Assembly (NCBI GenBank): GCA_050251055.1
Contig: JBFWNL010000001.1
Span: forward strand, 299,825 to 363,824
Length of the DNA: 64,000 nucleotides
DNA from: Bacteriovoracia bacterium
GTDB taxonomy: Bacteria > Bdellovibrionota > UBA1018 > JBFWNL01
Reading direction: 5' to 3'
The notes beneath the pieces are model-generated. The model had not been told where the DNA came from and did no database searches. It was given only the letters and a program-made list of their open reading frames with translations. Positions 1,890 through 42,027 of this stretch are shown here, one piece after another; position 1 is the first letter of the stretch; each line of letters starts with the position of its first letter. The translations under genes were made by a program, and so were the position numbers.

Positions 1890-1905
1890 TGGCACCTCTC
1901 TTGCT
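1890..1905 (+). promoter_or_regulatory. Sigma54 (-24/-12) promoter
   Basis: TGGCAC-CTCTC-TTGCT matches TGGCAC-N5-TTGCW, 30 nt before the ATG at 1936. Confidence 0.75.
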
Positions 1906-11748: not shown

Positions 11749-13003
11749 ACAAGTCACGCAGGCGTGCGTGATCGCACTCGTGGGTTTTTTACTTTTCATC
11801 GTCAACATCCAGTTCCCGCGGGGCCATAATTTCGACGAGTTCCACTACGTGCCCGCGGCCAAGGAGTTCTTAAAACTCGGTACGAACCGCAACTGGGAGC
11901 ATCCCCCGCTACCAAAATACTTCATCGCGGCCGGCATGGCCCTCGACGAAGACCGCCCCTTCGGCTGGCGTTGGGTGAGTTGCGTATTCGGCGCGATTAC
12001 GCTGGCCGGGATGTACTTCTGGGCGCTGGCGCTGTTCAGGCAGGAGCGCCTGGCGCTCTTCGTAACCTTCATCACGCTCTGCAACCACATGCTCTATGTC
12101 CAGTCGCGCATCGCGATGCTGGATATTTATATGATGGCGTTCCTGGTGTGGGCGCTGGCTTTCTTTACCCGGGCGGCCGATCCTGCGACGCCGGCGCGGG
12201 CGGCCAAACGTGCGCTGGCGGCAGCAGGGGTTTTGATTGGCCTCACGACGGCCTGCAAGTGGTTCGGGATGATTCCTTGGCTCGCGATCCTGGGTGTAAT
12301 CGTGGCGCTGAAGCTTCAGTTCAGTGATCGCAAGAGTTTCTGGCGCAAACTCGGCTACGGCTGGATCGCGGCGTGGTGGCTACTTATTCCGGCTGGGATC
12401 TACATGGCGACCTTCCTACCGCTACTGTTGCTCAAGGGAACGCATTACGGTTTTTGGGACCTCTTCCTACTACAAGGACAGATCTGGTCCGCGCAAAGCG
12501 CGCTGAAAAACACGCATCCCTACCTGAGTAGCTGGTACCAGTGGCCCCTGATCTCGCGGCCCATTTGGTACGCGTTCGATCACGAGCCTGGGCCAGCAGG
12601 GTGGGTGCGGGGCGTGCTCTTTCTGGGCAATCCCCTCGTCATGTGGTCAGGGCTCGTGGCCCTGGGATTCTGCGCTTGGAACTGGTTTAAGGAAGGCTCA
12701 CGGGTGGCACTGCTGATCCTTTTCTTTTACGGCGTCCTTTACCTGAGCTGGGCCGTCATCCCGCGGCACGTGAACTTCTACTACTATTACTTCCCCGCCG
12801 GTATGTCGCTGAGCCTGGCGGTCGCCTATGTATTCTCGCGCTACGACCAGGAATCCAGCCGTCGCCGAACCCTCTCCCCTTACCTGTTGGGCTACGCGGC
12901 GCTTTGCCTCGGGATCTTCGTCTACTTTTTTCCGGTGCTCGCGGCCCTAAGGATCCCGACGGAACACTTCAAGCGGTTCATGTGGTTTTCGAGCTGGGTT
13001 TAA
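11738..13003 (+). CDS. PMT-family (GT-C) protein O-mannosyltransferase-like glycosyltransferase
   Basis: FDEFHYV, EHPPLPKY, FGWR, SRIAMLD, CKW, HPYLSSWYQWP, LGNP; multiple TM helices. Confidence 0.85.
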   Translation: MDFRQVTQACVIALVGFLLFIVNIQFPRGHNFDEFHYVPAAKEFLKLGTNRNWEHPPLPKYFIAAGMALDEDRPFGWRWVSCVFGAITLAGMYFWALALFRQERLALFVTFITLCNHMLYVQSRIAMLDIYMMAFLVWALAFFTRAADPATPARAAKRALAAAGVLIGLTTACKWFGMIPWLAILGVIVALKLQFSDRKSFWRKLGYGWIAAWWLLIPAGIYMATFLPLLLLKGTHYGFWDLFLLQGQIWSAQSALKNTHPYLSSWYQWPLISRPIWYAFDHEPGPAGWVRGVLFLGNPLVMWSGLVALGFCAWNWFKEGSRVALLILFFYGVLYLSWAVIPRHVNFYYYYFPAGMSLSLAVAYVFSRYDQESSRRRTLSPYLLGYAALCLGIFVYFFPVLAALRIPTEHFKRFMWFSSWV

Positions 13004-13892
13004 GCGCGGCGTTGGCCGCGAAAAGCACTTCGTAGGTACGGAACGCGTAACGTGTCTTCAGCCCCAGCCGGCGCTGGATCTCGTCCAAATCCACGCCTTG
13101 TTGCTGCCAGTGACAAACCACCGAATGCCGAATGATCCGCGGCGTGAGTTTGGCGAACCCCAACCGTCGAGCCATGGCTTTGACCAGCAGCTCGACACCT
13201 CTTGGACTCATCGGTCCCGAAAGCGGCCCGTGCCGCGTGTGCCCAGAAAATAACCACTTTCCCACTAGCCCCCGCTTACGGGCGAAAGCCTGCAGATCCG
13301 CGTGGGCCCGGGGGGAAAGCGGCACCTCGCGGGGGGACTTGCCACCGAAGGAAAGGCGATTAGGGGCGCTGCCTACCCCTTGTTCTGTCGTCAACTGCCC
13401 CAGCTCACTCACCAAGCAGCCGGTTTCCAGCAGCAAGGTCAGCACGAGACGATTCCGCTCGTCTAGCTCCGTCGCCACAGGAAGGCGCGCCACCTGATCC
13501 GCGAGCGGCATCACCGCAACCGTAAACGGGACCTTCTCTAGCTTGCCCGGCGCGGGCACTTTCAAAGCCGGATCCACTTCGAGTTTGCCCCGGCGGTTGA
13601 GGTAGCGAAAAAGCCGGCGGACGGTGAGCACCTTACGGCGCCGGGTATTGACCTTTAGCCCTTGGACCTTAAGAAACGCGTTGTAAGCTTCCAGGTCCTT
13701 CTGGCCGACTTTTTCCAAGACGATGGGACGTCCCCGGAAGCGATGCTCGAGGTAACGCTGGAAGCTGAGGAGATCGGAACGGTAGCTGTTAACCGTATGC
13801 AGGGCTTTTTCCGTGCCCTGTAAATACCCTACGAAGCTTTTCATGACATAGGCATAAGTCAGCGGGTTGGGCGCGGATTTCGTAGCCTTCAT
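12978..13892 (-). CDS. XerC/XerD-like tyrosine recombinase homolog with degenerate active site
   Basis: N-domain [16 protein letters not shown]; catalytic domain [38 protein letters not shown]. Confidence 0.8.
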
Positions 13893-13926
13893 TGACCTGG
13901 ATCCTACCATAGATTACAAGCATCCC

Positions 13927-17016: not shown

Positions 17017-18093
17017 ATGAACTTCTTAGCGCGCGCACTCGAGCCCCCTCGATACGGTTATTCCCGGGAGGGGAAGCTGTATGTTCCCAGTCGGCCCGAA
17101 CTCTTCCGCGAGTTCTTTCGCGGCCTGAACGTATTTGGATCCCGAAAGCGATGGCTCCCCTTCCTTTCCTGGCTCACGACCTTATCGCTCGCATTTCCGC
17201 TCGCAACTTTCCTCGAGCGCTACTTCAGCTGGACGTTCATGCTCGTGGGCTTCTTGTTCGCGATGGTAGTGCTCGGTAGCCACGGTACGTTTTGGTTGCA
17301 TCGTTATTGCACTCACCGCGCATACAAATTCCGCAACCTTTTTTGGCTCCAGGTTTGCCGAAACTTGGTGCCGAAGATCATTCCTGAGGAAACTTACGTG
17401 GTCTCGCACTACGTGCACCATCAGTTTTCCGAGCAGCCGGGCGACCCCTACAATGTCCACGGTGGCGGATGGTACTGCTTTCTCGCCGACGTCAACCACC
17501 AGGGTATTCGCAAGGATTTGACCGAAGCGGAATACACGCAAGTCTCCCGGCTTTTGAAAAACTCCGGAGTACGCCTGAACTCTTACCGGCAATATCAACG
17601 CTGGGGAACGCTATGCCATCCCGCCTGGACGATCGCCCACTTCGCCTTGAGTTGGGCGTTTTGGTACGGGGCGTACTATGCCGTCGGCGGACACGCGCTG
17701 GCCACGTGCCTATTCGGGTGGACCGGCGTTTGGTCCATTGGCGTACGCACTTACAATTTCGACGGTCACGGCCGCGGGAAAGACCGTCGCCGGGATGGGG
17801 TCGACTTCAACCGCGAAGATCTCTCGGTGAACCAAATTTGGCCGGGCTATGTTTCCGGCGAGTGGCATAACAACCATCACCTGTACCCTTATGGCGCCCG
17901 CAGCGGTTTTCTACCCCACCAGCTCGACCTACCGTGGCTCCTGATTCGGGGATTAGCGAAACTAGGCGTGATCACGTCCTACCATGACTTCCGAGACGAG
18001 TTTCTCCGCGATCACTACCTCCCTTGGCTGGAAAAACAAAAGACGGAGAAGGGCGCGATCGCTCTGCCGGAACTCGCACCGACCGAGAGCTGA
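17017..18093 (+). CDS. Membrane fatty-acid (acyl-CoA) desaturase
   Basis: His boxes HRYCTH, HYVHH, GEWHNNHH; TM segments. Confidence 0.88.
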   Translation: MNFLARALEPPRYGYSREGKLYVPSRPELFREFFRGLNVFGSRKRWLPFLSWLTTLSLAFPLATFLERYFSWTFMLVGFLFAMVVLGSHGTFWLHRYCTHRAYKFRNLFWLQVCRNLVPKIIPEETYVVSHYVHHQFSEQPGDPYNVHGGGWYCFLADVNHQGIRKDLTEAEYTQVSRLLKNSGVRLNSYRQYQRWGTLCHPAWTIAHFALSWAFWYGAYYAVGGHALATCLFGWTGVWSIGVRTYNFDGHGRGKDRRRDGVDFNREDLSVNQIWPGYVSGEWHNNHHLYPYGARSGFLPHQLDLPWLLIRGLAKLGVITSYHDFRDEFLRDHYLPWLEKQKTEKGAIALPELAPTES

Positions 18094-18244
18094 TTCGACC
18101 CCAGGAGGCCGGTTTTTTTGGCCCCAATTTCTCGCTTTTCTACCGGAGTCCAACGGACACCTCGCCTGCTGTTTCTTTCCCAATTCAAAAAAATCCCCCA
18201 GAGTTCTCTCATCATCCACGCACAGCTCTTTGCGTCAAAAGCTC

Positions 18245-18260
18245 CGGTATGGAACTTGCT
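18245..18260 (+). promoter_or_regulatory. Sigma54-type promoter
   Basis: CGGTAT-GGAAC-TTGCT (GG-N10-GC), followed by a GGAGG RBS and ATG 18293. Confidence 0.6.
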
Positions 18261-18292
18261 GAATTGCCCGGCAAATTCTCTAGGAGGGGACC

Positions 18293-19636
18293 ATGTTTCA
18301 AAAATCCAAACTGTTGGCAGGCATCGGTGCGTGTATCAGCGCATCGCTCATGATTATAAATTCCGGAAGCGCGGTGCGCGCGAGCGCCGATCGCAACTCA
18401 GAAACGATTGTCTTTGACGGAAGCACGCTGAATCTCACGCGTGACCTGCAAGACACGCTCTCGCATACCGTCTATGAAGACCGGCAGGTGCCGGATACCT
18501 GCTACGAACGAGTCGTAGTGGGTTACGAAACGCAGTGCCATACGGAATACGATCGGGTTTGCCACACGGAGACTCGCCCCGTTTGTCGCACGGAAACCCG
18601 ACGTGAATGTGACAACACCACCCGTCGCGAATGCTATCCAGAAACGCGCCGCGAGTGCGATCGCACCACTCGACGCGAATGCAGCCAGGAAACCAAATGC
18701 CACGACGTTCCCGATCAGATCTGCCATACGACGCCCAAAGGTGAACGCGAATGCCGGGACATCTCGCGCCGCGAGTGCAACTCGGAGACCGTATGCCGGG
18801 ACGTACCGGATGAGATCTGCCGTACCTATACCGAAAACGTCTGCCGCGACGTCCCTGACCAGATTTGCCGCACCTACGACGAACAGGTGTGCCGCGATGA
18901 AAGCGAGCAGGTTTGCGAAACCTATCCGCGCGAAGCCTGCGAAGAAGTCCCCGTCTACGAAGATCGTGCCTATGCCTGCACGCGTACCGAACGAGTGCCG
19001 GTAGGAACAGAGATCGATCTCGAGACCACCGCAAGCGTGCAAATCACTTTCAGCGGCGTCCCTACGGGCACAACCCCGAACGAGACGATGGCTCTGAGCC
19101 TTCGGGGGGATCAGCTAACGCTCGCGCAACTGAGCGGTAGCGGGCAATTGTTGCTACTCGTGGATAAGCGCATTGAAGTTCGCGATACGGGCACGAAACG
19201 CAAGCACATCGACGCCGTCTTTACGATCACAGTAATGAAGGTGGTGGATGTCACCGCTCCCCTCACCCGCGTCATCGAGGGACTGAACGCAAAGAAAGGG
19301 GTCATCAGCGCGACCCTGGGCGCGGTAAACCATCCCGAGACCTTGAGCCTGCAGCTCAAGATCACCAAGGGGCGCGATATCCTTATCGCTCGTGAGTTAA
19401 AAGACATCGAGTTCACGTTGACGGGCCTTAGCCCGTCGAAGCCGGGCTCCCCCGCCCTGACCCAGCTCACGATCGACGTAAGCCGGCTTGAATTGGCCAT
19501 GCCGGTCACCTCGGGCAAGCATGAGGTCACGTTAACGGCGGGGCTCAAGCCCGCGACGCGCGCACGCGCCCTCAACGCGAAGGTGCTGCCCGCGAAGCTC
19601 GAGCAATCTGCGAGCAAGAAGCTGTCGCTTAAATAG
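18293..19636 (+). CDS. Secreted protein with a 20-Cys mirror-symmetric repeat inserted in a beta-rich body
   Basis: GGAGG RBS, signal peptide, CX7 repeats at aa 70-229. Confidence 0.85.
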   Translation: MFQKSKLLAGIGACISASLMIINSGSAVRASADRNSETIVFDGSTLNLTRDLQDTLSHTVYEDRQVPDTCYERVVVGYETQCHTEYDRVCHTETRPVCRTETRRECDNTTRRECYPETRRECDRTTRRECSQETKCHDVPDQICHTTPKGERECRDISRRECNSETVCRDVPDEICRTYTENVCRDVPDQICRTYDEQVCRDESEQVCETYPREACEEVPVYEDRAYACTRTERVPVGTEIDLETTASVQITFSGVPTGTTPNETMALSLRGDQLTLAQLSGSGQLLLLVDKRIEVRDTGTKRKHIDAVFTITVMKVVDVTAPLTRVIEGLNAKKGVISATLGAVNHPETLSLQLKITKGRDILIARELKDIEFTLTGLSPSKPGSPALTQLTIDVSRLELAMPVTSGKHEVTLTAGLKPATRARALNAKVLPAKLEQSASKKLSLK

Positions 19637-20986: not shown

Positions 20987-21847
20987 GTGATTGTGGGGAT
21001 AGCAAAAATCCGCGACTTGGGCCGGGGGCCTGGGTTGTCGGTATTCGTATTACTTTTGTGTTTGAGCGTCATAAACGCGGAAGCCGCGACGGAAGCGACC
21101 GCGCAGCCTTCCATGTTCTCGCTCGATGCTTTGCTCTCCGCTAGCACGAGCCTGCATACGGGTGAGCAAGCCGCGAGAGCCTCTGAAATGCAACTCTGGC
21201 TCACGCCGGGCATACGGATTTCAGAGAACTGGAAGCTCACCGCGCTCGGGATCATCACGCAAAATCTTGAAAACGAGATGGGCGTCACGATGAGCGACGT
21301 GGAAATCGGCGCTCGCCGCAAAGGCTGGGAGCTCAACCCCTTCTTAAAATTCTCGCCGGGAATCGGCATGAAGGTTCCGGGCAGCAAGACCTCCGTCGTG
21401 GGCCGCGGCTTCCGTACCTCGATCGCGGTTAAGCCCCGCTTGATGTACGATCTTTCCGCCCTCAAGATCTGGGGTCTGCGCGCGATCTCGGGCTACTACC
21501 AGGCTTCGGGTACGCGTAACTTCCACGAGTTTAATACTTCCATCACCGGCGTCTCCAACTCGCAGTACTCCTTCGTGAACACGCTGCGCGTGAATGTCGC
21601 CTTCACGGAGAAGCTCAGCCTCACCCTCGATCAGCTCTTCACCGCGGCCTGGACCTACGAAGGCACGCCCAAGAGCACCTTCGAGATGGGGCAAGAGCTT
21701 AGCTACGAATTTACGGAAAGTTTTGCGTTAGGGGTCGGACATAATAACTCCGGCAATATGTACAAAGAAAACGGCCTGGATTCGAACCTCCAGTTCTTCA
21801 ACCAGGACCACTCGACCGTGTATATGAGCGCGGCGTTTAAGCTTTAA
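20987..21847 (+). CDS. Outer-membrane beta-barrel protein, hypothetical (GTG start at 20987 or 20993)
   Basis: Signal peptide, alternating strand pattern, ends VYMSAAFKL; 14 nt from the next gene. Confidence 0.7.
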   Translation: MIVGIAKIRDLGRGPGLSVFVLLLCLSVINAEAATEATAQPSMFSLDALLSASTSLHTGEQAARASEMQLWLTPGIRISENWKLTALGIITQNLENEMGVTMSDVEIGARRKGWELNPFLKFSPGIGMKVPGSKTSVVGRGFRTSIAVKPRLMYDLSALKIWGLRAISGYYQASGTRNFHEFNTSITGVSNSQYSFVNTLRVNVAFTEKLSLTLDQLFTAAWTYEGTPKSTFEMGQELSYEFTESFALGVGHNNSGNMYKENGLDSNLQFFNQDHSTVYMSAAFKL

Positions 21848-21861
21848 AAGGGGATAGAGAC

Positions 21862-24800
21862 ATGAAAACGAACCAGCTTTTTTTCGCTTCGGCCACGGTA
21901 TTGGCGCTAGCCATCTCGGGCTGCACTAAGCCACGTCCATATAAAGAGGTCTATAAGGAAGAGGTGCTCGATCGAGGGCTCTTCGACACGAAGTCCCTCT
22001 ACCTCTACGCGCCGTCGGTCGTGGATTCCGCACGGACGTCGACCGCTTCTCGTCCTTACTGGATGGGAGAGCAGAAGCTCGTAAAGCTGAAGTTCGCCGA
22101 AGACGGGCTGAAGCTCGTGGAAGTCGAAGGCGACGCACGCTTTACGGACAATCCGACCAACGAAAAACCGGTGCTAACAATTCCCGGGGAGTACCTAGAA
22201 TACCGCTGCGCCAAGAACGAAGTGGACGAGTGTTCCAACAAGGAAGAAGTAAACAACGATCTGCCTTGGAGCGCTCGGTCGAAATTCAAGCCCAAGCTGG
22301 CGAAGCTCGAGGTTCAGGAAACCAACCTCATGCCCACCCAGCTCGCGAACCTGGTCATCGGCTGCTATAAAGACCAGGGTTTCGAAGTCGTAAGCGCCAA
22401 GTGGGAAAACGACGCCATCAACTTTGAACTCGAACACTCGTACGGCGTGAATGTGATGTGCGCGGACTTCGATCAAGCCGCCACCGAGCACGAGCTCTTC
22501 TCAGGCCTGACCGTGAAGGTACGCGAACACTTCTCGATCGTGAAACGCGACTCGCTCGTCACGAAGGGCTACGAGCCGGTGAAGTATCCGGAAGCCGATA
22601 GTAATACGTTCGGCTTCTTCGAGACCGAGCAGCATAAGCTCGACGTCGATAACCGGGACCAAGAAAAAGGCATGACCAAGCTCATGAACCGCTGGAACCC
22701 GCAGGCTAAGGAAGTCGTGTACTACTTGAGCGCGGCCTACCGAAAACCCGAGCTAGCTCACATTCGGGAAGCGACGCTCCAGTCGGTGAAGATCATCAAT
22801 GACGGCTTAGCGCAATCGGGCGCGAACCTTCGTTTGGTGGCCAAGGACATGACCGAATCCACGCGCATCGGCGATCTACGCACGAACGCGCTCGTGCTGG
22901 TGGAAGATCCGATCGCGGGCGGGCTCTTGGGCTACGGCCCGACGATCGCCGACCCCCTCACGGGCGAGATCATCCATGGCCGCGTGGTAATGTACTACGG
23001 CAACCTCGTCAAATACATCAAGCTGACCTACGACGACATTGTCGCTGAACGTCGTCGTGAAGCGGGAGCGCCGCCGGCCCAGCCTCCGGTGGACGCGCCT
23101 AAGGAAGAGCCGAAAGAAGAACCCAAGGACGACGCCGGTTTGCTGATGGCGCTGAAGGCCACCCCCGCCGCGAGCGGCTTGGACGCGGAAGTCCGCAAGC
23201 TCACGCTCGAATCCGCGACCGACCTGAGGGACAAACCGCGCCAGAAGATGAATCTCGGCCAAATGCGCGAGCTCGTCCGTGCCCAAGGGTACGACATGAC
23301 CCGGATCCAGGAGCGCTATCGAATTGCCCAAGCCAAGGCAAATGACGCCGGCAAGGCTGAAGATCTGCTGCCGATATCCGAGGTCAACGAAAAAGCCGAT
23401 CGCCTCTCCACGCTTTCGGAACACTGCGGTTACCCGGGTGAAATGGCTAATTTCCAGGGCGCCGTGGGATCCGCGATCGACGACGTATTGCCCAAGGGTG
23501 AGTTAAAGCCTTGGGAAGAGCTGACGGACGCCGAAAAGGTCCAGATCACGCGTCTCATTCTGCCGACGACCTGGGTCCCGACGCTCATCCACGAACTCGG
23601 TCACAACCTGGGCCTGCGCCATAACTTCGCCGGCAGCATGGATAAGGCGAATCATTATACCGCCAAGGAAACGGAAAAATTGGGCCTGAAGCGAATCATG
23701 CCCTACTCCTCGATGATGGAATACCCCAATAAGGAGATCAATGCGCTCCAGGTGATGGGTAAGTACGACATCGCAGCCCTACGCTTCGGTTACACCCGCA
23801 CGGTGGAGCAACTCGATATCGAGCGCGACGCCGACGGCAAGCCGAAAGTTGACGACGAGGGCGAATACGTGATCAAAACGGCGAAAAACGACGCCGGCGA
23901 AGAAGTACCCGTGACGGTCTCCGTAGCCGTGCCCGGCACATTAGCGGAGCTGAAAGCCAAAACCGATCCAAAACTCACGTTCACAAACTACGAGTATTGC
24001 ACGGACGAAGGCGTGGGCGCGAACCCCACCTGTAACCGTTTCGACGAAGGCACGACTATGGCCGAAGTCGCGCAAAATCTCATCGACAGCTACGACGAGA
24101 TGTATACGCGGCGTAACTTCCGCTCCGGTCGCCGCGATTTCAGCCTGATGAATGATGGCGATTACGCGATTTCCATCAACCGCACCTTCCGCGGCCTGCG
24201 CCTGTTCTTCGAAATGTACGAAACGCTGGTCACGCGCTTCAACATTCCGGCGGAAGCCTGGGAGGAAGAGCCGTTCCTGGCCGATCTGAACTCGGCCGTG
24301 GAAAAAGCCGGCGACTTCTACTTGAGGGTGATGCGCACGCCGGACGTCTTCTGCTCGCTCGCCTCAATTGACGAGCCGAACGAACCGGTCGGTCTGCAGA
24401 TGCTCTATGCGATCAACAAGCGATCGGTGAGCTGCTTCGAGCCGGCCATCATCGCGCTCGCGGCGCAGAACGGACTTGTGGTTCACGGGCAAGGCGGACG
24501 GTCTTTCCGTTCGCTGAAGGCCCCCGGTAGCGAGAACCCATACGCTGACCAAATCGACGTACGCGGGATCTGGATCGATAAGCTCCTGGCCGAACAGAGC
24601 CTGCTCGCCCGGCGCATCGGCAGCCCGCTGTTCGACGGCGAAACCCTGAACTTCCTGCAGAAGCCAGGATTCGCCGATAAGGCGCTTAAGGCGTTCGAGG
24701 AGATCCTGGACGATCGCCTCACCGGCGAGCTCGTGGTGACGACTGCCCAAGGCAAACAGGTTTCGCTGGGAGCAGGCGGTTGGCCGCTCTCGGTCACGCA

Positions 24801-25671
24801 CAAGATTGTACGGCCGATGGATCCGTTCATTCGCCGGGCGTTCTCGCTCCCGCAAGGCGACAACACGACCTTCGTCAACGAGCTCGTCTTCAACGTGAAT
24901 GCGTGGATGCCGAGCCGCGAGCACGACTGGGCGGCTCGGCCGTTCATCCGGCTGTTTGACGTCTGGGAAGTGTCGCTCACGGACAGCCAAGACTACGACA
25001 AGAGCCTGCGCGTGCTCGACCTGGGAACCCGCCGTTTCTTGGCGGGCCCGCAGCAGGCGTTCGCGCGCAAAATCATGAACGAGATGGATCAAGTCCGCCT
25101 CATGACTCAGGTCAAGCCAGCGGATCTGGCGAAGATTCTCGCGGACCTGAAGAAACCGCAGCCCCCGGGCCCGGCTCCGGAGCCAAAGCCGGATCCCAAA
25201 CAGAATGAGGATCGCGCGGCGAAGCAACAGCGCATCGCCATCGCGGGCCTGAGCTTGGAGACGTTCCGTAAACGCGTGGCGGACGCGAAAGACTGGACGA
25301 TCGAGCAGCTGCTGGAGATTCTCAAGCAGGCCGGCGCCGAAGGCGAAATCAAGGAGCGGGAACTCGCCCGCGCCGTGATCGCCGTTAGCGACGCGCTCGA
25401 GATCGCGCGGGCCGCGAAGCCAGGCGAGGAACAAGACGCCAAAATCCTGGAAGTCGTGAAAGCTTCCAAGAAAGAAGCCGTGGTCAAGCTCGTGATCGAG
25501 AAGGTCATTAGCGAAGCCATCGTGCCGGCCGAACCCGTGCCGACCGAAACGATCGAAGCCAAGGTCCGCAAGCTCGGCCCGGCCCCGATCGAGAAGTTCC
25601 TCAAGAATGGATTCAAGTCGGAGCGCGTTTACTCTGACTTATTGATGGTTCTCACTAAATCCGGCCGCTAG
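21862..25671 (+). CDS. Large zinc-dependent metalloprotease lipoprotein (metzincin, EcxA-like)
   Basis: Lipobox LAISGC; GYGPTIADPLTGEI; HELGHNLGLRHNFAGS; Met-turn SSMMEY; GKYDIAALRFGY. Confidence 0.9.
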   Translation: MKTNQLFFASATVLALAISGCTKPRPYKEVYKEEVLDRGLFDTKSLYLYAPSVVDSARTSTASRPYWMGEQKLVKLKFAEDGLKLVEVEGDARFTDNPTNEKPVLTIPGEYLEYRCAKNEVDECSNKEEVNNDLPWSARSKFKPKLAKLEVQETNLMPTQLANLVIGCYKDQGFEVVSAKWENDAINFELEHSYGVNVMCADFDQAATEHELFSGLTVKVREHFSIVKRDSLVTKGYEPVKYPEADSNTFGFFETEQHKLDVDNRDQEKGMTKLMNRWNPQAKEVVYYLSAAYRKPELAHIREATLQSVKIINDGLAQSGANLRLVAKDMTESTRIGDLRTNALVLVEDPIAGGLLGYGPTIADPLTGEIIHGRVVMYYGNLVKYIKLTYDDIVAERRREAGAPPAQPPVDAPKEEPKEEPKDDAGLLMALKATPAASGLDAEVRKLTLESATDLRDKPRQKMNLGQMRELVRAQGYDMTRIQERYRIAQAKANDAGKAEDLLPISEVNEKADRLSTLSEHCGYPGEMANFQGAVGSAIDDVLPKGELKPWEELTDAEKVQITRLILPTTWVPTLIHELGHNLGLRHNFAGSMDKANHYTAKETEKLGLKRIMPYSSMMEYPNKEINALQVMGKYDIAALRFGYTRTVEQLDIERDADGKPKVDDEGEYVIKTAKNDAGEEVPVTVSVAVPGTLAELKAKTDPKLTFTNYEYCTDEGVGANPTCNRFDEGTTMAEVAQNLIDSYDEMYTRRNFRSGRRDFSLMNDGDYAISINRTFRGLRLFFEMYETLVTRFNIPAEAWEEEPFLADLNSAVEKAGDFYLRVMRTPDVFCSLASIDEPNEPVGLQMLYAINKRSVSCFEPAIIALAAQNGLVVHGQGGRSFRSLKAPGSENPYADQIDVRGIWIDKLLAEQSLLARRIGSPLFDGETLNFLQKPGFADKALKAFEEILDDRLTGELVVTTAQGKQVSLGAGGWPLSVTHKIVRPMDPFIRRAFSLPQGDNTTFVNELVFNVNAWMPSREHDWAARPFIRLFDVWEVSLTDSQDYDKSLRVLDLGTRRFLAGPQQAFARKIMNEMDQVRLMTQVKPADLAKILADLKKPQPPGPAPEPKPDPKQNEDRAAKQQRIAIAGLSLETFRKRVADAKDWTIEQLLEILKQAGAEGEIKERELARAVIAVSDALEIARAAKPGEEQDAKILEVVKASKKEAVVKLVIEKVISEAIVPAEPVPTETIEAKVRKLGPAPIEKFLKNGFKSERVYSDLLMVLTKSGR

Positions 25672-25784: not shown

Positions 25785-26393
25785 ATGCCCCGAATTCGTT
25801 GGCTGCCCGCTCTGCTGCTCGTCGGTTTCGTCCTCGCTCCCCCTACTTCCGCCCACGCTGCCCTGGGTTTTTCTCTCTTCGGTGACTTGAACTTCGCCAA
25901 TCTGAACGCCAAGGACGCGGTCACCGGGGCGGATCTCAACAATCACGCCAAGCTCGGTTTCGGGGGCGGGCTCGGAATCGACTTGCCGTTGGGTTCGCGC
26001 GTCGCCATCGGCATCGGGCTTCAATACGACCGCCTCACCTATCACGACCCTCGCCGCGCCCTGGATTTCACGTTCACGCGCTTCAATGTCCCGGTGCTGC
26101 TAAGAGTTTTCCTGGCACGTCCGGTGTTCATCAGCGTGGGGGGTTACTATAATGTGGGCTTGGGCGGCATCCGGGACAGCCAGGGCGATACCTATACTTA
26201 CGCTCCCCTCAACCGTATCTACGATTACGGCCTGGTTACCGGCGTAGGCTTCCACCTGGGCCGGATCCTCCTCGAAGGGCGATACTACCTGGGCCTGGCG
26301 GAAAACAGCGCCAACCTCAACATCGCGGCCAGCCAGAAGTGGACGAATATTCAGATCCTTTTCGGCATCCTCCTAGGCGCGCAGTCCAAGTAA
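25785..26393 (+). CDS. Small outer-membrane beta-barrel (porin-family) protein
   Basis: Signal peptide ending AHA; GFGGGLG, VPVLLR, DYGLVTGVG, EGRYYLGL. Confidence 0.8.
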   Translation: MPRIRWLPALLLVGFVLAPPTSAHAALGFSLFGDLNFANLNAKDAVTGADLNNHAKLGFGGGLGIDLPLGSRVAIGIGLQYDRLTYHDPRRALDFTFTRFNVPVLLRVFLARPVFISVGGYYNVGLGGIRDSQGDTYTYAPLNRIYDYGLVTGVGFHLGRILLEGRYYLGLAENSANLNIAASQKWTNIQILFGILLGAQSK

Positions 26394-42011: not shown

Positions 42012-42027
42012 AGCAAGGGATGTGCCA
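42012..42027 (-). promoter_or_regulatory. Sigma54 (-24/-12) promoter
   Basis: Minus strand TGGCAC-ATCCC-TTGCT, 43 nt upstream of the start at 41968. Confidence 0.78.

Follow-up and report, generated by a model that had tools for sequence, protein, structure and literature searches.

The window analyzed in this work is a stretch of 64,000 nucleotides (nt) from a Bacteriovoracia bacterium of the phylum Bdellovibrionota (contig JBFWNL010000001.1, positions 299,825 to 363,824 of the forward strand), and positions are counted from its first letter. An open reading frame (ORF) on its plus strand (18293-19636, stop included) encodes a protein of 447 amino acids (aa), referred to here as the stalk protein. 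It is very probably an exported member of an unannotated, Bdellovibrionota-specific family in which a hairpin of the protein body is lengthened into a single disulfide-laddered, two-stranded ribbon. A hairpin with ten cross-strand Cys pairs is favored because the mirror symmetry of the Cys spacings is kept in relatives with 2 to 18 rungs, because charges covary between the two arms and because the strand register of an AlphaFold2 (AF2) model agrees with the proposed pairing. The symmetry, the covariation and the predicted fold are computational results; the oxidation state, rigidity, location and function of the protein are inferred.

The stalk protein contains one Cys at position 14, within the signal peptide, followed by 20 Cys at aa 70-229 (window 18500-18979). 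The first ten are located at 70, 82, 90, 98, 106, 114, 122, 130, 136 and 144 and the second ten at 154, 162, 168, 176, 184, 192, 200, 208, 216 and 229. Upon re-translation, the spacings 12,8,8,8,8,8,8,6,8,10,8,6,8,8,8,8,8,8,13 were obtained, exactly as listed in an earlier note made from the sequence alone, which had described them as a palindrome. The description is accurate for the 17 inner spacings, but the outermost pair is not equal (12 versus 13). The inner spacings comprise fourteen 8s, two 6s and one 10, a composition for which 8 of 2040 orders are palindromic (p ~0.004, worked out by hand). The ascending arm (aa 70-146, 18500-18730, plus strand) carries ten Cys in 8-residue units that are mostly Arg-rich, and the descending arm (aa 152-229, 18746-18979, plus strand) carries the other ten in mostly acidic RDVPD-type and RTY-type units; the whole segment is rich in E, R, T, C, V and D. 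The tip reads C-HTTPKGERE-C at aa 144-154, as previously reported, and the three facings of Arg-rich and acidic units noticed at the same time are reproduced under mirror pairing (DNTTRRE with RDVPDQI, DRTTRRE with RDVPDEI and HDVPDQI with RDISRRE). The VYEDR motif said to occur at both ends is indeed present twice, at aa 60-64 and at aa 221-225, yet these copies do not pair with each other in the hairpin: the second faces approximately residues 74-78. At the DNA level, a 48-nt tandem repeat corresponding to two 8-residue units occupies 18790-18897 in the descending arm. The two-unit blocks CRDVPDEI-CRTYTENV and CRDVPDQI-CRTYDEQV of this arm are identical at 35 of 48 nt, the ascending blocks CRTETRRE-CDNTTRRE and CYPETRRE-CDRTTRRE at 32 of 48 nt, and the ascending and descending blocks pair with one another in the hairpin register. 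These sequences give the impression that both arms underwent duplication of a two-rung block at roughly the same time.

The symmetry of the spacings was then examined across the family. A word-indexed search with the stalk protein yielded 23 relatives, and an exhaustive HMMER search of 1.84 billion cluster representatives yielded 295 at E<=1e-3 and 143 at E<=1e-10. The 163 relatives returned for analysis, numbered with the prefix P, form a set of 164 proteins together with the stalk protein itself. A conserved frame was defined by a first spacing of 11-13 residues and a last spacing of 13 (15 in a few), inside which the inner spacings were compared. This frame is present in 147 of the 164 proteins, so that the outer pair of 12 (or 11) and 13 is a trait shared across the family. 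The inner spacings are perfectly palindromic in 122 of the 147 framed proteins, or 123 if P0103, to which extra N-terminal Cys caused a wrong frame to be assigned, is counted. The number of Cys inside the frame is even in all 147, and none of them has arms differing in rung number. The implied rungs range from 2, for the frame alone (12,X,13), to 18, evenly spread and with no preferred value. The symmetry extends to irregular arms: perfect palindromes are found in 90 of the 109 proteins with heterogeneous arms, among them P0021 (10,9,8,10,9,10,9,9,[10],9,9,10,9,10,8,9,10) and P0015 (8,7,8,7,8,7,4,[9],4,7,8,7,8,7,8), and the symmetric arms of P0043 include a run of 6s. The earlier prediction that repeat number should change symmetrically on both arms in homologs is therefore borne out. 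The 17 proteins devoid of the frame include N-terminally truncated fragments (e.g. P0003, P0117 and P0142) as well as proteins that are palindromic in a different frame (P0008, P0099, P0126, P0143 and P0160). A further reading by hand was made of 25 members taken from genome loci (prefix L), which partly overlap the 164-protein set. Twenty of them are perfectly palindromic inside, L014 and L019 are palindromic in a different frame, and a one-residue difference in one mirrored pair is seen in L015b, L020 and, if the standard frame is applied, L019. Seven members from a single genus (loci L004-L010) share an identical pattern, six of them beside the same neighbor gene.

Charge covariation between the arms was measured on 411 mirrored pairs of 8-residue units from 107 perfectly symmetric proteins, all position pairs being compared. 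A single cell stands out, that of position 5 against its mirrored counterpart 5', with 113 (+,-), 111 (-,+), 4 (+,+) and 1 (-,-) pairs. Doubly charged pairs are thus opposite in 224 of 229 cases, with both polarities about equally frequent. The mean charge product at 5/5' is -0.53, as compared with -0.16 +/- 0.03 and a minimum of -0.26 in 1000 within-protein shuffles, and when the partner is displaced by one or two rungs the products are -0.07, -0.22, 0.00 and 0.01. Kinship among the sequences inflates the 5/5' counts; since both polarities are equally used and the slid controls are low, it can be argued that the signal is not merely inherited. In the stalk protein itself, all seven 8-residue rungs are opposite at position 5, two of them with swapped polarity (HTEYDRV/ETYPREA and HDVPDQI/RDISRRE). 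The antiparallel register places 5 and 5' on one face of the ribbon, away from the Cys face, as diagonal cross-strand neighbors. Diagonal cross-strand positions commonly make side-chain contacts in twisted hairpins. The facing of Arg-rich and acidic units in the stalk protein would thus appear to be one case of a compensatory charge pattern common to the family.

A structural model was produced by AF2 from an alignment of 133 sequences, with a mean predicted local distance difference test score (pLDDT) of 87.3 and a predicted template modeling score (pTM) of 0.65. Its two strands, 47-146 and 152-253, run without a break on either side of the turn TPKGE (aa 147-151, 18731-18745, plus strand), with a pLDDT of 76-91 along the stalk. 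The register of the strands is i+j=298, and each Cys pair between C82/C216 and C144/C154, both included, adds up to exactly this value. The pair C70/C229 sums to 299, so the offset of 12 versus 13 found throughout the family amounts to a bulge of one residue at the exit of the ribbon from the body. The structure check proposed earlier thus returned one antiparallel hairpin with a nested Cys register, in which the disulfides themselves would be formed between facing residues. On either side of the stalk the strands continue into the body as the base of the hairpin, at aa 47-69 (18431-18499) and aa 230-253 (18980-19051), both on the plus strand. The N-side base holds the most conserved motif of the family, ending in VPDTC in the family consensus sequences. 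In a minimal homolog with 4 Cys and 300 aa (P0121, 52-sequence alignment, pLDDT 94.1), the hairpin is still formed by strands 35-71 and 80-117. The retention of the base in this protein indicates that the stalk is an extension of a hairpin belonging to the conserved body. The earlier suggestion of a single hairpin projecting from a beta-rich body, with arms changing in step, is consequently supported by the homolog symmetry, by the 5/5' covariation and by the turn of the AF2 model.

The projecting stalk counts about 77 residues per arm. As an extended strand rises by ~3.3 A per residue, the modeled ribbon would measure roughly 25 nm if extended; by the same estimate, stalks would range from ~4 nm in the shortest relative to more than 40 nm in the longest. 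When alternate residues of both arms are listed, both faces of both arms are found to be polar or charged, the Cys face carrying T, P, Q, D and R and the opposite face R, E, D, V, I and Y. Neither a hydrophobic face nor an amphipathic tip is present in this listing. A free soluble rod is therefore expected, which should resist proteases and would be neither inserted in a membrane nor packed in a core.

The remainder of the protein consists of two beta domains. The other strands of the first domain (aa 254-319, 19052-19249, plus strand) were delimited by DSSP on the AF2 model, and the C-terminal domain (aa 320-447, 19250-19633, plus strand) resembles an FN3/Ig-like beta-sandwich. The latter was aligned by VIA-align to the FnIII domain of gp130 (3l5j_B) with a Z of 8.4 and a root-mean-square deviation (rmsd) of 2.7 A over 88 residues, values of Z near 8 being common. 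The corresponding domain of P0121 aligned to 9eq7_A with a Z of 9.2 and an rmsd of 2.6 A over 93 residues, and Pfam gives no match for this C-terminal domain. The fold searches left the first beta domain (aa 33-69 and 230-319) unassigned, since their lists were filled by the FN3-like domain. Scans of the stalk protein against Pfam-A and NCBIfam gave no family at E<=1, a sequence search of the PDB gave no relative at E<=1, and a profile of 52 short members retrieved only chance-level matches from the PDB sequences (E 0.57 and 0.65). The ESM Atlas places the protein in an unannotated cluster of its own, with a weak structural row to a Planctomycetota cluster of YTV repeats at a TM-score of 0.23-0.28.

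The stalk also behaves as a module. In P0011, a whole stalk of 12 implied rungs in the 12/13 frame directly follows the signal peptide and precedes a Cu_amine_oxidN1 domain. Its junction to this domain in place of the usual body shows the stalk to be portable. In P0004, a self-complementary module (6, acidic 8, tip-like 9/10, basic 8) occurs three times in tandem; the array stays palindromic and charge-complementary, be it folded into one long hairpin or into three short ones, and may represent another route to symmetric growth.

The tips of the homologs are variable in length. Some are tight, with turns of the PDG or NG type, and the central spacing ranges from 5 to 123 residues among the bacterial-type members. 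Over the full range of tip loops, from 5 to 255 residues, the symmetry is kept. The inserts are low-complexity sequences of Gly, Pro and Arg, reaching 123 aa in the bacterial-type P0054, while the 255-residue loop, encoded at L022:6338-8176 (minus strand), is Pro-rich with PQPEP-type repeats. A charged tip insert of 267 residues is present in P0143, a protein of eukaryote-like appearance. Long inserts of low complexity are as expected of a solvent-exposed apex. Among other members with long low-complexity tip loops (P0054, P0080 and P0047 are examples), repeats of the GGGDRRPDRPGN or PEPPSRPEPPER type are found, and in the shortest members loops rich in Gly, Pro and Tyr replace the stalk.

These tips bear on an alternative to the single hairpin, an antiparallel domain-swapped homodimer in which the ascending arm of one chain would be joined to the descending arm of another by intermolecular disulfides. 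Mirror symmetry and 5/5' covariation are equally compatible with it, as they cannot separate pairing within a chain from antiparallel pairing between chains. Against it speak central spacings as short as 5 residues, tight tip turns and tip loops that range from 5 to 255 residues with no loss of symmetry. The AF2 monomer moreover closes the hairpin confidently, and in the minimal homolog its base lies inside a compact domain. A homodimer prediction run on two copies of residues 32-447 scored 0.00 against a mark of 0.42 and, performed without controls, has no bearing either way. The swapped dimer is considered improbable.

Local pairing of the Cys was considered as well, each closing a loop with the next or next but one, or forming small two-disulfide modules arranged as flexible beads on a string. 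The C-x7-C repeats could close such 8-residue loops, and a precedent exists in the avian CREMP protein, reported (PMC12723725) to consist of self-contained two-disulfide modules, paired Cys1-3 and Cys2-4 and separated by flexible linkers. This protein resembles the stalk protein in its Cys-rich repeats and its extracellular structural role; the pairing in the stalk protein would instead be long-range and nested. Modules of the CREMP type do not explain mirror symmetry: the mirrored irregularities and the equal Cys numbers of the arms in all framed proteins would be left unaccounted for, as would a charge covariation spanning units up to 130 residues apart. The two arms, in addition, use different types of units, and their strands are continuous in the AF2 model. 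Local loops are accordingly regarded as very improbable.

Comparison of the models of the stalk protein and P0121 with solved structures by Foldseek raised a further alternative, that of a stem whose copies would assemble into the long tube of an oligomeric beta-barrel. The top matches of both models are the pore stems of anthrax protective antigen (PA), lysenin, iota Ib, CDTb and aerolysin, with E values of 1e-5 to 1e-2 (6psn_A at 1e-5; also 5ec5, 9jsg and 6o2n). Their TM-scores are however 0.07-0.21 and their rmsd exceeds 20 A, and the matches are read as those that any long hairpin model would attract. The polar or charged nature of the tip and of both faces, with no alternating hydrophobic stretch, is at odds with a barrel stem, as are the ninefold variation of stalk length and the replacement of the stalk by low-complexity loops in some members. 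Such an assembly is thus highly unlikely.

Export of the stalk protein is plausible, in agreement with the earlier claim of a signal peptide. A probable Sec signal peptide covers aa 1-32 (18293-18388, plus strand) and ends in AVRASA before D33; it contains a hydrophobic stretch, and residues 1-31 have a pLDDT below 50 in the AF2 model. A hydrophobic run of at least 9 residues within the first 35 aa is present in 132 of the 154 family members starting with M. A lipobox-like pattern is found in 8 relatives, about four of which were judged credible (e.g. P0009, P0012 and P0059). No match to DsbB was found in the genome, which is 93.5% complete. Two genes of the DsbA family are present, one of which shares an open frame of 417 aa with a VKOR domain (G000:C15:12192-13265, minus strand); disulfides of the periplasm thus seem to be formed in this bacterium by a VKOR-DsbA fusion. 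The idea that the Cys are reduced or serve as ligands of metals or clusters, the symmetry stemming from an internal inverted duplication with no strand pairing, can draw on CH pairs at 82, 90, 136 and 144 and is held to be highly unlikely in view of the export signal, the probable lipoproteins among the family, the periplasmic oxidation system, the absence of CxxC or CxxH motifs and the fact that the arms are charge-complementary and not inverted copies of each other.

The proposed mechanism can be summarized as follows. After Sec export, the stalk protein would be oxidized by the periplasmic VKOR-DsbA system. The hairpin of the conserved beta domain, extended by ~77 residues per arm, would form an antiparallel ribbon of ~25 nm held by ten disulfides (C70-C229, C82-C216, C90-C208, C98-C200, C106-C192, C114-C184, C122-C176, C130-C168, C136-C162 and C144-C154). 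Each 8-residue rung would contribute one diagonal salt bridge from position 5 to the mirrored position 5, and the number of Cys units, equal on both arms, would set the length genetically. As for the function, a rigid, length-defined spacer, probe or reach element in the periplasm or at the cell surface, setting the distance between the body and its contacts, is tentatively proposed; paralogs would then supply different reaches. A ruler, a probe and an adhesin stalk had been put forward earlier as candidate roles; a fixed-distance periplasmic ruler was set aside, as rung numbers are spread from 2 to 18 with no preferred length. Presentation of a binding head is likewise disfavored by the plain turn at the tip. 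In a wider and speculative picture, the family would constitute protein nanorods of programmable length, from ~4 to more than 40 nm, growing only by complementary unit pairs that bring one disulfide and one salt bridge each, as a protein equivalent of the nucleic-acid hairpin. They would serve predators as graded elements reaching across the envelope or to the prey surface, and the arthropod family described below would have the module in common with them, through descent or transfer.

A number of observations weigh against these interpretations. The symmetry is broken in 25 of the 147 framed proteins, by one to three mirrored pairs and mostly by one residue in one pair; P0048 and P0085 are asymmetric in three pairs, and large one-sided insertions occur in P0090 (8 versus 25) and P0131 (14 versus 31). 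Sub-families with odd spacings (7 and 9) cannot hold all their Cys on one face of a ribbon, and bulges must be assumed. An array such as that of P0004 could just as well form several short hairpins. AF2 may favor hairpins on repeat sequences, and the model that the ESM Atlas gives for the stalk protein is poor (pTM 0.38, pLDDT 0.65). The disulfides, the rod shape and the location are all inferred. No solved structure is alike, the best Foldseek matches to the model of the stalk protein having TM-scores of 0.07-0.15, so that a ribbon of 77 residues per arm with no hydrophobic core would be unprecedented. Concerning function, the tip is a plain turn devoid of a binding domain, neither end is anchored to a known structure, and no conserved operon or partner was found at the loci examined, where the neighbors are housekeeping genes differing between lineages.

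Elements of the proposed architecture exist separately in known systems. Theta-defensins, protegrins, tachyplesins and arenicin are cystine-ladder beta-hairpin peptides of ~16-25 residues, with 1-4 disulfides placed 2-4 residues apart. They share with the stalk protein antiparallel strands joined by a turn, parallel cross-strand disulfides and mirror-related Cys. The stalk protein differs by its 10 rungs (18 in relatives) set 8 residues apart, by a repeated, length-variable unit and by a predicted salt bridge per rung. Its ladder is furthermore a 160-residue insert in a two-domain protein of 447 aa, with 26 R+K against 38 D+E, and not a small cationic peptide. The pore-toxin stems (anthrax PA 6psn, lysenin 5ec5, iota Ib 9jsg and aerolysin) are the longest beta-hairpins among solved structures; they need an oligomeric barrel to be stable, end in an amphipathic membrane tip and contain no disulfides, in contrast to a stalk devoid of a hydrophobic face. 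The stalk of the bovine ultralong complementarity-determining region (CDR) H3 is reported (PMC5994613, PMC11229553) to be an exposed two-stranded beta-ribbon that rises from a beta-sandwich body and sets its reach. It is short (the whole CDR H3 is at most ~70 aa), carries no ladder and keeps its disulfides in a binding knob, whereas the tip in the stalk protein family is a bare turn or a loop of low complexity. Full-text searching of the literature yielded no description of a protein such as the one analyzed here. The principle is known, as a cystine ladder in small peptides and as a ribbon stalk in cow antibodies, and the combination of the two at such a scale or as a length-variable module was not found.

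If the connectivity were confirmed, the disulfide ladder of the family would be by far the longest on record and its free two-stranded beta-ribbon the longest as well, and the natural series of 2-18 rungs would make the stiffness of an isolated beta-ribbon testable. The same series bears on how oxidative folding finds nested, long-range pairs and on how a repeat can expand when each gain must be matched 100 or more residues away. A design rule for rods of chosen length would also follow if the reading is true, namely a Cys every 8 residues and opposite charges at position 5.

A similar pattern was encountered in a family of marine eukaryote transcripts, comprising P0126 and 279 further relatives; P0189-P0307 are among its members, and P0143 and P0122 are placed with it as well. 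P0126 matches the stalk protein in phmmer with an E of 1.3e-12, and the ESM Atlas places the look-alikes of this family in Arthropoda, unannotated. The transcript family shares C-x7-C units, TEY and DVPxQ motifs and mirror symmetry with the stalk protein; it differs from it by the lack of the Bdellovibrionota-type body domain and by a low-complexity C-terminal tail. The pattern 20,8x5,16,8,[20],8,16,8x5,20 was found by hand reading in 38 of the 60 members examined. The 16-residue spacings look like Cys lost at mirrored places on both arms, and a few members, e.g. P0194, have lost a Cys on one arm alone. The likeness between the two families may reflect either homology or convergence.

Of 301 genomes sampled from the phylum, 79 contain the family according to a profile of the short members, with up to 8 matches per genome. 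Roughly one sampled genome in four thus encodes this unannotated family, in a phylum whose members are mostly predators. Its occurrence is concentrated in three families of the phylum (49 of 67, 10 of 12 and 9 of 35 genomes), and the names attached to the matches are all 'hypothetical protein' (Bdellovibrionales, Bacteriovorax, Oligoflexia and Bdellovibrionia metagenome-assembled genomes). Used as a query against a collection of genome contigs, the stalk protein retrieved no relative locus, and P0006 retrieved a single one, L023, in the class Bdellovibrionia. The genome containing the window carries a single copy of the gene. Paralogs of different stalk length occur in tandem in other genomes; tandem members with different rung numbers are found at L016 (three members) and at L013 and L015 (two each).

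The neighborhoods of the relatives contain, according to Pfam, tRNA synthetases of the GltX/CysS type, a DAP/ornithine decarboxylase, a phosphoribosyltransferase, an FMN oxidoreductase and a Ser/Thr kinase, and in one genus a neighbor that appears RecO-like on reading its sequence. In the window, the gene of the stalk protein is flanked by an upstream membrane protein and a convergent kinase of the APH family. The upstream protein (17017-18093, plus strand) has 358 aa, no Pfam match at E<=1e-3 and the His-box-like motifs HRYCTHR, HYVHH and HNNHH, which we take to resemble those of membrane desaturases or hydroxylases.

A Shine-Dalgarno-like AGGAGG was located at 18282-18287 on the plus strand, the ATG following 5 nt further on. 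The sigma-54-type promoter that had been assigned to the gene was not upheld. The consensus of such promoters is TGGCAC-N5-TTGC (GG-N10-GC), and the TGGAAC (18250-18255) and TTGC (18264-18267) found upstream lie 8 nt apart instead of the canonical 5. A scan of the plus strand from 18094 to 18292 with at most 2 mismatches to the consensus gave no match, and no sigma-70-like site was found upstream of the gene on the same strand. Elsewhere in the window, the consensus is matched perfectly at 1890-1904 (plus strand) and 42013-42027 (minus strand); matches with at most 2 mismatches number 47 in the whole window, not above the 58 expected from shuffled sequences.

Other genes of the window were recorded in passing. 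About 2 kb downstream of the stalk protein gene, an ORF of 1269 aa (21862-25671, plus strand) contains a metalloprotease region of the Met-zincin type (DUF4953/reprolysin-like). It is preceded by an ORF with no Pfam match (20987-21847) and followed by an outer-membrane beta-barrel ORF (25785-26393). On the minus strand, a tyrosine recombinase ORF with Phage_integrase and SAM-like N-terminal domains (12978-13910) adjoins a transaldolase gene.

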